Assembly: GCF_041886205.1 (NCBI RefSeq)
Contig: NZ_CP169029.1
Length of the DNA stretch: 64,000 nt
Reading direction: 5' to 3' (one strand)
From: Escherichia coli
Lineage (GTDB): Bacteria > Pseudomonadota > Gammaproteobacteria > Enterobacterales > Enterobacteriaceae
Under the pieces are notes generated by a model that worked only from the letters and a program-made list of their open reading frames with translations, searched no databases and was not told the origin of the DNA. Below are positions 22,268 to 23,373 of this stretch, piece after piece. The first letter of the stretch is position 1; each line of letters starts with the position of its first letter. The position numbers and the translations under genes were made by a program.

Positions 22268-22629
22268 ATTTTTCCCTAAATAGTCAGTATGTTGAAACTT
22301 TTTATTGTGAGATTTGTTGCAAAAACCATCTGACCATAACGCCAGCTGCCGGGGAAAGGAAGGATTATCTGCGGTTTTTGTGATGAAAAGCAGGATGATT
22401 ATATTTAACCCAGTAAATACGTTCCTGTCTTTTTTTGTATAAAAAATGTTTATTACTCGATGTAAGGATACATTAATTTTACGTTTATTATGATGAATCC
22501 TCGGCAAATGAGCGAAATTTGATAGAACATTTATCTGCTGTACGATTTAATGAACTTAATGATACAGCATTACAAAAACAATCGAAGTTTATAAAGATGA
22601 TTTCTGATTGACCAGCCCCCTACCCTACA

Positions 22630-22872
22630 ATGGTGATTAATTTTATTACTCGCGATGGAGATGATGATATGAATATATCATATGTGAATAGCAACAAAAC
22701 GACATCTTTACCTGTTGAGCTAGATGCACTAAATAATAAAGATATCTCTTATGCCAAAGATTTCTTTTTATACATAGAAACACAGTTAAAAATTGCAAAA
22801 GATTTTTTAGACCTGGAGAAGAAGTATCAAGTTCTATTGCAAGTAAAGTTTTTCACGCATTTATTGATTTAG
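22630..22872 (+). CDS. Small hypothetical ORF in AT-rich aphA-tyrB spacer (yjbS-like position)
   Basis: 80-aa ORF in very AT-rich DNA; identity not recognised. Confidence 0.3.
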   Translation: MVINFITRDGDDDMNISYVNSNKTTSLPVELDALNNKDISYAKDFFLYIETQLKIAKDFLDLEKKYQVLLQVKFFTHLLI

Positions 22873-23373
22873 TTAACAAAATCAGGGGTAAGAAAGACTT
22901 TATGTATATTTGCACGCTTTGCTGTTTTGCCGAGGAGGTTAAAGGTGATTATTCTCATTACAGGACCTTTTTATTTGATATTGGTAATCAATATAAGGTT
23001 AAACTTACACAAAGCGGAAAAAAGAGTTCTCTTTAACATTAGAATTTAACGATACTATAATTGAATCTCAGAAAGTCACAGGCAATAAGGCAAAGCATAT
23101 TCTTGAGGATATAGAAATATTCTATCGTAACAAACCCGATACTTATTATTAAATTTAATAATGGTTAGATGTGCAGAAATTATTACTCCACCCAAAAAAA
23201 CAGGATAAGGAATTCCAGATAATTGGGATAAACTTAACAATAAAAGAACTAACAACGTTTATTATCTCTCACGTAGAACGATGGCATCAAAAAAATCATC
23301 TATAAAGAAAGAGTGAAAGCGACGACAGTTTAATTTCACTGCAGGCTGGGTAGCTCCAGCCTGCTTTCCTGCA

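Follow-up and report, generated by a model that had tools for sequence, protein, structure and literature searches.

The spacer between aphA and tyrB in Escherichia coli has been described from several sides. A 1-kb segment overlapping tyrB and b4621 (yjbS) is among the 20 most GC-divergent segments of the K-12 chromosome (PMC2575891). A 318-bp 'promoter island', 4266514_318, lies between tyrB and yjbS and overlaps a predicted genomic island (Panyukov and Ozoline 2013, PMC3661553); in Table 1 of that paper it is marked 'K', that is, bound by H-NS in the chromatin immunoprecipitation data sets of Kahramanoglou and Oshima. In uropathogenic E. coli (UPEC), the KguS/KguR alpha-ketoglutarate utilisation island, c5032-c5041, is inserted between tyrB and aphA (Cai et al. 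2013, PMC3694859). We report here on this spacer and on the gene yjbS within it, in a window of 64,000 nucleotides ('the window' is the whole stretch of DNA analysed, from contig NZ_CP169029.1), which is part of a K-12-like E. coli chromosome.

The spacer is composed of about 139 bp of conserved DNA upstream of aphA, an AT-rich islet of about 0.93 kb, and the presumed terminator hairpin of tyrB. The islet carries one orphan gene restricted to Escherichia and Shigella, with a product of 161 or 167 amino acids (aa). Our preferred interpretation, to which we give a probability of roughly 80%, is that the islet is silenced, decaying DNA of foreign appearance, and that its single orphan gene is a pseudogene in this K-12-like strain.

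A split orphan gene

By the open reading frame (ORF) listing and by coordinate transfer from the RefSeq K-12 record, aphA (21554-22267) and tyrB (23374-24567) are minus-strand genes that leave between them a spacer of exactly 1106 bp, 22268-23373. Its GC content is 0.324, and that of the islet (22407-23335) 0.306, compared to 0.512 for the whole window. Over 900-bp windows the mean is 0.512 with a standard deviation (sd) of 0.055, and the minimum in the spacer, 0.303, lies about 3.8 sd under the mean. RefSeq annotates in it yjbS (b4621, 'protein YjbS', WP_001321562.1), a 67-aa ORF nested in one of 80 aa. The translation is 100% identical to the K-12 protein, with the same neighbours tyrB and aphA, and is the exact sequence of UniProt entry YJBS_ECOLI.

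When the window was aligned with strains SC475 and O157, a single ORF of SC475 was found to span the window's 80-aa ORF, a 44-aa ORF downstream of it and a further stretch. The parts of the split gene are as follows.

22407..23335, no strand: AT-rich, strain-variable islet; GC 0.306; limits from blastn of the three locus types found at this site
22669..23152, plus strand: decayed full-length orphan gene; a 161-aa ORF after repair of two 1-nt deletions
22669..22872, plus strand: yjbS as annotated; 67 aa, made of native residues 1-46 and 21 out-of-frame residues
22807..22808, plus strand: frameshift site 1; missing G, GATTTTT^TAGACC here compared to GATTTTTGTAGACC elsewhere
22902..23036, plus strand: 44-aa Cys-containing ORF; native residues 79-119 from an internal Met, and 3 out-of-frame residues
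23018..23023, plus strand: frameshift site 2; run of six A (A6), seven (A7) in intact alleles; hotspot of independent lesions
23024..23152, plus strand: third fragment, in the third frame; native residues 120-161 and the original TAA stop, 23150-23152

Repair of the two lesions in silico restores 161 codons, from 22669 to the TAA at 23150-23152, and the product differs at 2 residues from that of the intact ORF of EC07 (locus L008). As read from the sequence, a GGAG motif is placed 8 nt before ATG 22669, and ATG 22630, with which the 80-aa ORF begins, is without one. The third fragment aligns with an 83-aa 'hypothetical protein' annotated by RefSeq in other strains, WP_000275035.1.

An earlier note on this DNA had called the spacer an AT-rich non-coding stretch and had pointed to an 80-aa ORF (22630-22872) and a 44-aa Cys-containing ORF as possible small-protein genes. 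The spacer is indeed long and AT-rich with short ORFs only, and both ORFs are present as claimed, the second at 22902-23036; 'non-coding' does not hold, since yjbS is annotated at 22669-22872. The two ORFs are not independent genes, both being consecutive fragments of one 161-aa gene. Conservation across strains, by which the note had proposed to judge them, fails for the short ORFs as such and favours the long ancestral ORF.

The order of the two lesions could be read from other strains. For this, 15 loci not of the K-12 type were compared, 13 of them spaced down the identity ranking, plus SC475 and O157. The G of site 1 is kept in all 15; it is lost in the window, in K-12 and in a K-12-type contaminant contig (NZ_JAUFQN010000013.1). 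At site 2, A6 is common to the K-12 type and to strain LA3, which is 99.5% identical to the window, retains the upstream G and has an additional 1-nt loss of its own. Because LA3 shares A6 yet keeps the G, the slip from A7 to A6 preceded the G loss in the K-12-like lineage; the two lesions together split the frame in three, namely yjbS, the 44-aa Cys-containing ORF and an unannotated tail. Strains A28 and C10, which have another haplotype, also read A6, by a 1-nt loss at the run distinct from that one, while in O157 a 10-bp deletion takes out the A-run altogether. The gene was thus inactivated independently three times or more at the A-run or beside it, in K-12/LA3, in A28/C10 and in O157.

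Intact alleles, selection and homologues

The ORF is intact in 11 of the 15 loci, with a length of 161 or 167 aa. The 167-aa alleles have an in-frame 18-bp tandem duplication (SYAKDF repeated) at the site equivalent to 22737-22746 of the window. The other four loci have truncated ORFs: 119 aa in O157, 126 aa in LA3, and 128 aa in A28 and C10. The 90%-identity protein cluster to which the intact alleles belong counts 2144 sequences, of which some are partial. As a rough estimate, about 45% of the islet-bearing genomes would keep the ORF intact; the figure comes from 39 evenly spaced rows of the ranking, 13 of which were checked directly, the rest being assigned from identical length, identity and annotation pattern.

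Nine distinct intact alleles differ by 21 non-synonymous and 16 synonymous variants, which gives a ratio of 0.32 in the ORF's own frame (P = 9e-4 against neutrality). For the other five frames of the same DNA the ratio ranged from 0.44 to 2.7, and only the antisense frame at 0.44 was also below the 0.05 level (P = 0.014). Pairwise omega values among intact alleles were mostly 0.15 to 0.35. Within the islet, moreover, nucleotide diversity (pi) is lowest in the ORF, at 0.026, compared to 0.036 upstream and 0.058 downstream. From these values we conclude that a real protein is, or once was, encoded by the long ORF, under moderate constraint.

The intact gene is concealed by its annotation. In EC07 (locus L008, 420-905) and at five further loci, the intact 161/167-aa ORF is cut by the RefSeq Prokaryotic Genome Annotation Pipeline into a 'frameshifted' pseudogene and WP_000275035.1. 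The likely cause of this split is the use of the truncated K-12 YjbS as reference model.

No homologue beyond Escherichia and Shigella was found in the protein searches. Pfam, NCBIfam, PADLOC and PHROG yielded nothing past cut-off for the long protein or for the short ORFs; the best family matches, to BamG (E = 0.028) and a zinc-finger family (E = 0.12), are at chance level. A sequence profile search of the PDB gave nothing below E = 0.8. In a word-indexed search of 5.8 billion proteins, 64 matches were obtained, many of them fragments and all with Escherichia as source name; Shigella members are present in the cluster listing. When 1.84 billion representatives were searched exhaustively with an HMMER profile, 29 matches were obtained, of which 28 are short proteins covering parts of the profile, that is, fragments of the same family. 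The remaining one, the repeat protein P0086 (2001 aa, E = 7.8e-4), has unrelated Pfam matches, sub-threshold for the most part, and was dismissed as compositional.

At the DNA level, tblastn found no copy in phages, and its 'plasmid' matches proved to be chromosomes, or fragments of chromosomes, filed as plasmids. A scan of contigs from one genome per species had an E. coli contaminant contig as its sole match, the scan being pattern-based, so that divergent copies can escape it; the E. coli genome in that collection is, we believe, ATCC 11775, which is without the islet.

Several database entries met in these searches deserve mention. The contaminant contig is NZ_JAUFQN010000013.1, of 9.5 kb, filed under a 'Flavobacterium paronense' assembly and carrying K-12-type yjbS sequence. 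A 17-kb 'Klebsiella oxytoca plasmid' carries such sequence too, and several E. coli chromosomes of multi-Mb size have been entered as plasmids; contamination or mislabelling is probable. Two metagenome proteins, P0056 and P0064, join YjbS-family sequence to an unrelated part, which in one of the two resembles a fragment of a sigma-54 regulator and in the other is the C-terminus of haemolysin E (PF06109). These may be assembly chimeras or real rearrangements at the locus.

AlphaFold2, run on a shallow alignment, produced a model of moderate quality (predicted local distance difference test, 67; predicted template-modelling score, pTM, 0.60), in which a disordered N-terminus is accompanied by three helices, a sheet of four strands and a helix at the C-terminus. 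By eye, the N-terminus of the intact protein is not hydrophobic. In our working view, the intact protein would be cytoplasmic, lineage-specific and dispensable, its loss being tolerated, and the fragments in K-12 would be inert.

The intact alleles may also be given more weight than this. The intact ORF could encode a functional, species-restricted and possibly recently born protein, with a fold unlike solved structures, which selection keeps in about half of the carrier lineages; elsewhere it would be lost repeatedly at the A-tract, and the K-12-centred 'frameshifted' labels would hide it. The site would then be a three-allele recombination hotspot, with the Kgu island as a mutually exclusive alternative. 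We put this forward tentatively, as a possible but doubtful extension.

Could the long ORF instead be a chance open frame in AT-rich DNA, the whole islet being non-coding junk? The failure of every search made to find a homologue, domain or fold match would fit, as would the merely moderate AlphaFold2 confidence and the repeated loss of the frame. However, a run of 161 to 167 stop-free codons at 30% GC is very unlikely by chance, and the excess of synonymous variants is strongest in the ORF's own frame (0.32, compared to 0.44 in antisense). A variability below that of the rest of the islet, a GGAG properly spaced from the start codon and a coherent alpha/beta architecture in the model (pTM 0.60) argue the same way, and we consider a chance frame unlikely.

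Probable silencing of the islet and other readings of the spacer

The H-NS mark of island 4266514_318 leads to the question of expression. Promoter islands bind RNA polymerase while almost no full-length RNA is made, the products being abortive and of 9-14 nt only, according to the promoter-island paper (PMC3661553). As judged from this literature, H-NS would coat the islet, which would behave as a near-silent promoter island without expression of its gene. We take the island to correspond to approximately 22873..23190 of the window, by conversion from K-12 coordinates through the end of tyrB, with a check of internal consistency only. On this approximate mapping, what lies beneath the 'intergenic' promoter island is decayed coding sequence, namely fragments two and three of the gene.

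The sole other comparably AT-rich stretch in the 64 kb, at about 8350-9300 (GC about 0.30), covers espX5 (yjcF, a pentapeptide-repeat protein resembling type III secretion system effectors) and its upstream region, and adjoins actP, as judged by coordinate transfer from the K-12 record. A promoter island at yjcF/actP is also in the published list (PMC3661553).

Transposition data exist for the locus. yjbS has a low Tn5 insertion index by TraDIS, the transposon-directed sequencing of insertion sites (PMC5821084). H-NS has been proposed to shield DNA from transposition (proposal summarised in PMC6785131), and the scarcity of Tn5 insertions in yjbS is consistent with such protection. One and the same insertion of the insertion sequence IS1 in yjbS, at nt 193 of 204, was found in two macrophage-adapted evolved populations (PMC4999529). 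Among natural isolates, IS1 is inserted in the islet of QL57EC and WCHEC050613 and has replaced the islet in HCP6S3_I1, which suggests that the islet is an IS1 target hotspot. In the K-12-like strain, the islet would most likely be only silenced, slowly decaying DNA that attracts IS1.

Some of these data could be taken as signs of a functional 67-aa YjbS, truncated and neo-functionalised, with the 44-aa ORF perhaps as a second small protein. The recovery of an identical IS1 insertion from two macrophage-adapted populations would speak for this, but the insertion touches the out-of-frame tail only, and the insertions in natural isolates point to a hotspot. Likewise YjbS is annotated in RefSeq and UniProt, keeps the GGAG and ATG and has a low Tn5 index; however, 21 of its 67 residues are out of frame and were made by a deletion, and its region is reported to be H-NS-bound and poorly transcribed (PMC3661553). 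No Shine-Dalgarno sequence is evident for the 44-aa ORF, which begins at an internal Met and has a frameshifted end. In the sister lineages, moreover, the truncations are of 119, 126 and 128 aa, and no one short form is kept. We hold functional small proteins of this kind to be quite unlikely.

The spacer was also inspected for structured RNA and for regulatory signals. Two features lie on either side of the islet.

22268..22406, no strand: conserved aphA-proximal segment; the part of the spacer common to all three locus types, no other part being so
23341..23364, no strand: GC-rich hairpin that follows the tyrB stop codon directly; falls in the folding scan's strongest structural outlier

The first is presumed to hold the aphA promoter and 5' leader. 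The second is presumed to be the tyrB terminator, and could also stop transcription coming from the islet; stretches of 61 and 66 nt around it have minimum free energies of -19.2 to -22.4 kcal/mol (z about -2.7 to -2.8 on both strands), and on the tyrB strand no U-run follows.

A small regulatory RNA, or another structured RNA, has been considered since the spacer is long and without an intact gene, and since many promoter-like sequences are reported in it (PMC3661553). An Rfam search of 21000-25000 at E <= 1 gave no match inside the spacer. Folding of 120-nt windows on both strands (54 windows) gave a mean z of -0.3, and the isolated outlier that could suggest an RNA (22628-22747, minus strand, z = -3.1) is what chance would give once in 54, the sole robust structure being the tyrB hairpin. 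The non-coding parts of the islet are the most variable and rich in indels, the 3' part being the most variable of the locus (pi = 0.058), and the products of promoter islands, as reported in PMC3661553, are the abortive ones only. An RNA gene is thus very improbable.

Two further short ORFs, 22519-22611 (30 aa) and 23171-23305 (44 aa), are not conserved, indels breaking both in other strains; the latter was rejected as a second small gene on account of 1-nt indels in several lineages. The earlier note's suggestion that the spacer might hide small proteins or small RNAs is therefore not borne out, as regards Rfam matches, conserved structure and conserved extra small ORFs. Outside the spacer, between tyrB and alr, the sole match of the Rfam search, a weak one to naRNA4, was seen at 24763-24799 on the plus strand (32.5 bits compared to a gathering threshold of 59.5, E = 0.0037). 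It may be a repetitive extragenic palindromic (REP)-type repeat.

Phase variation by slippage of A7, with the window in the OFF state, would agree with lesions at or next to the A-run in three independent lineages, two of which read A6, with a homopolymer that varies among strains (A7 in intact alleles, A6 in the K-12 type, LA3, A28 and C10) and with purifying selection on intact alleles, but it is scarcely probable, A7 being short for a contingency tract, the extra lesions being irreversible (a G outside any long homopolymer lost in the K-12 type, a 1-nt loss in LA3, the 10-bp deletion of O157) and the K-12-type sequence being shared by 1642 genomes, so that no switching is visible in the lineage.

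Several points weigh against our preferred interpretation of a silenced islet with a dead gene. The 67-aa YjbS keeps its Shine-Dalgarno sequence and start codon, and may thus still be translated to some extent. The scarcity of transposon insertions in yjbS might in principle stem from a fitness effect and not from occlusion by H-NS. Foreign origin is suggested by composition and patchy distribution, and no donor was found in the phage and plasmid searches. The selection test comprises 9 alleles and 37 variants, counted without a phylogeny. Finally, a two-hexamer sigma-70 scan detected 6 promoter-like sites, compared to 5.6 +/- 2.4 in shuffled sequences, that is, no excess, and terminator counts likewise agreed with those of shuffles; the published promoter-island call used PlatProm, a different algorithm, and is therefore not contradicted by the scan.

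Three states of the site and comparison with known systems

To survey the distribution of the islet, the spacer was compared by megablast with 5426 complete E. coli genomes. The spacer was matched in 4378 of them at 93-100% identity, and the islet is present in 4356, including 1642 with the K-12-type islet (at least 99% identical). A second state, found in 19 genomes, is an unrelated spacer of 336 bp without the islet. In 1048 genomes the aphA-upstream segment is only 90-95% identical, and the same number lack the islet. The B2 type strain ATCC 11775, the one example examined, has at this site an island of 13.9 kb with 9 genes, among which are those for a sensor kinase, a sigma-54 regulator, a 2-oxoglutarate dehydrogenase complex, a succinyl-CoA synthetase, a DASS symporter and an Ldh-family oxidoreductase. 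This content agrees with that of the KguS/KguR island of PMC3694859. By extension, the Kgu island would replace the islet in about 1048 B2-type genomes.

All locus types share about 139 bp beside aphA, and homology returns only at the tyrB stop codon. When the window, a short-spacer strain and a B2 strain were compared, some 130-139 bp beside aphA aligned at 86-91%, after which homology ended. Among the islet-bearing strains, this segment also has the lowest diversity (pi = 0.010).

The neighbouring intergenic site is polymorphic too: the short-spacer locus (5612-7170) and the B2 locus (15869-17421) have pnuC and a gene for an AAA-family ATPase between tyrB and alr, while the gap between these genes in the window is only about 250 bp.

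The biological importance of these results is modest, and they are useful corrections more than surprises. As a gene fragment, yjbS should be left out of small-proteome lists and of lists of genes 'essential by TraDIS'. A reference bias is exposed, in that a broken K-12 copy, once taken as model, makes annotation split intact genes elsewhere. The Kgu island of UPEC can be redescribed as a replacement rather than a simple insertion. In strains with intact alleles, the orphan protein is worth a single expression test.

The locus itself, its AT-richness, its association with H-NS and yjbS are already known, and a frameshifted orphan gene in a silenced islet is of a familiar kind. What appears to be unrecorded is that yjbS and the ORFs beside it are pieces of a single gene, that intact copies bear 'frameshifted' labels in RefSeq, and that the promoter island lies over former coding sequence. 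With respect to K-12, window positions 22669-22872 are identical to yjbS in sequence and position; where databases list an uncharacterised 67-aa protein, we see the 5' fragment, with 46 native residues, of a 161/167-aa gene. The promoter islands of PMC3661553 share with the islet the locus itself, the AT-richness, the link to horizontally acquired DNA and the reported binding of H-NS, but that paper treats the island as intergenic, whereas our approximate mapping would put fragments of a coding sequence beneath it. The Kgu island sits at the same place in the chromosome, between aphA and tyrB; its 13.9-kb content is unrelated, and it would be an alternative occupant, not an insertion into a K-12-like spacer, both being present together in 0 sampled genomes. 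A further likeness is to the frameshifted orphan pseudogenes of silenced enterobacterial islets, with which the locus shares AT-richness, patchy distribution, a single orphan, several inactivations and IS insertions. Unlike those typical cases, it is not uniformly dead across the species, and its intact alleles are under measurable purifying selection.

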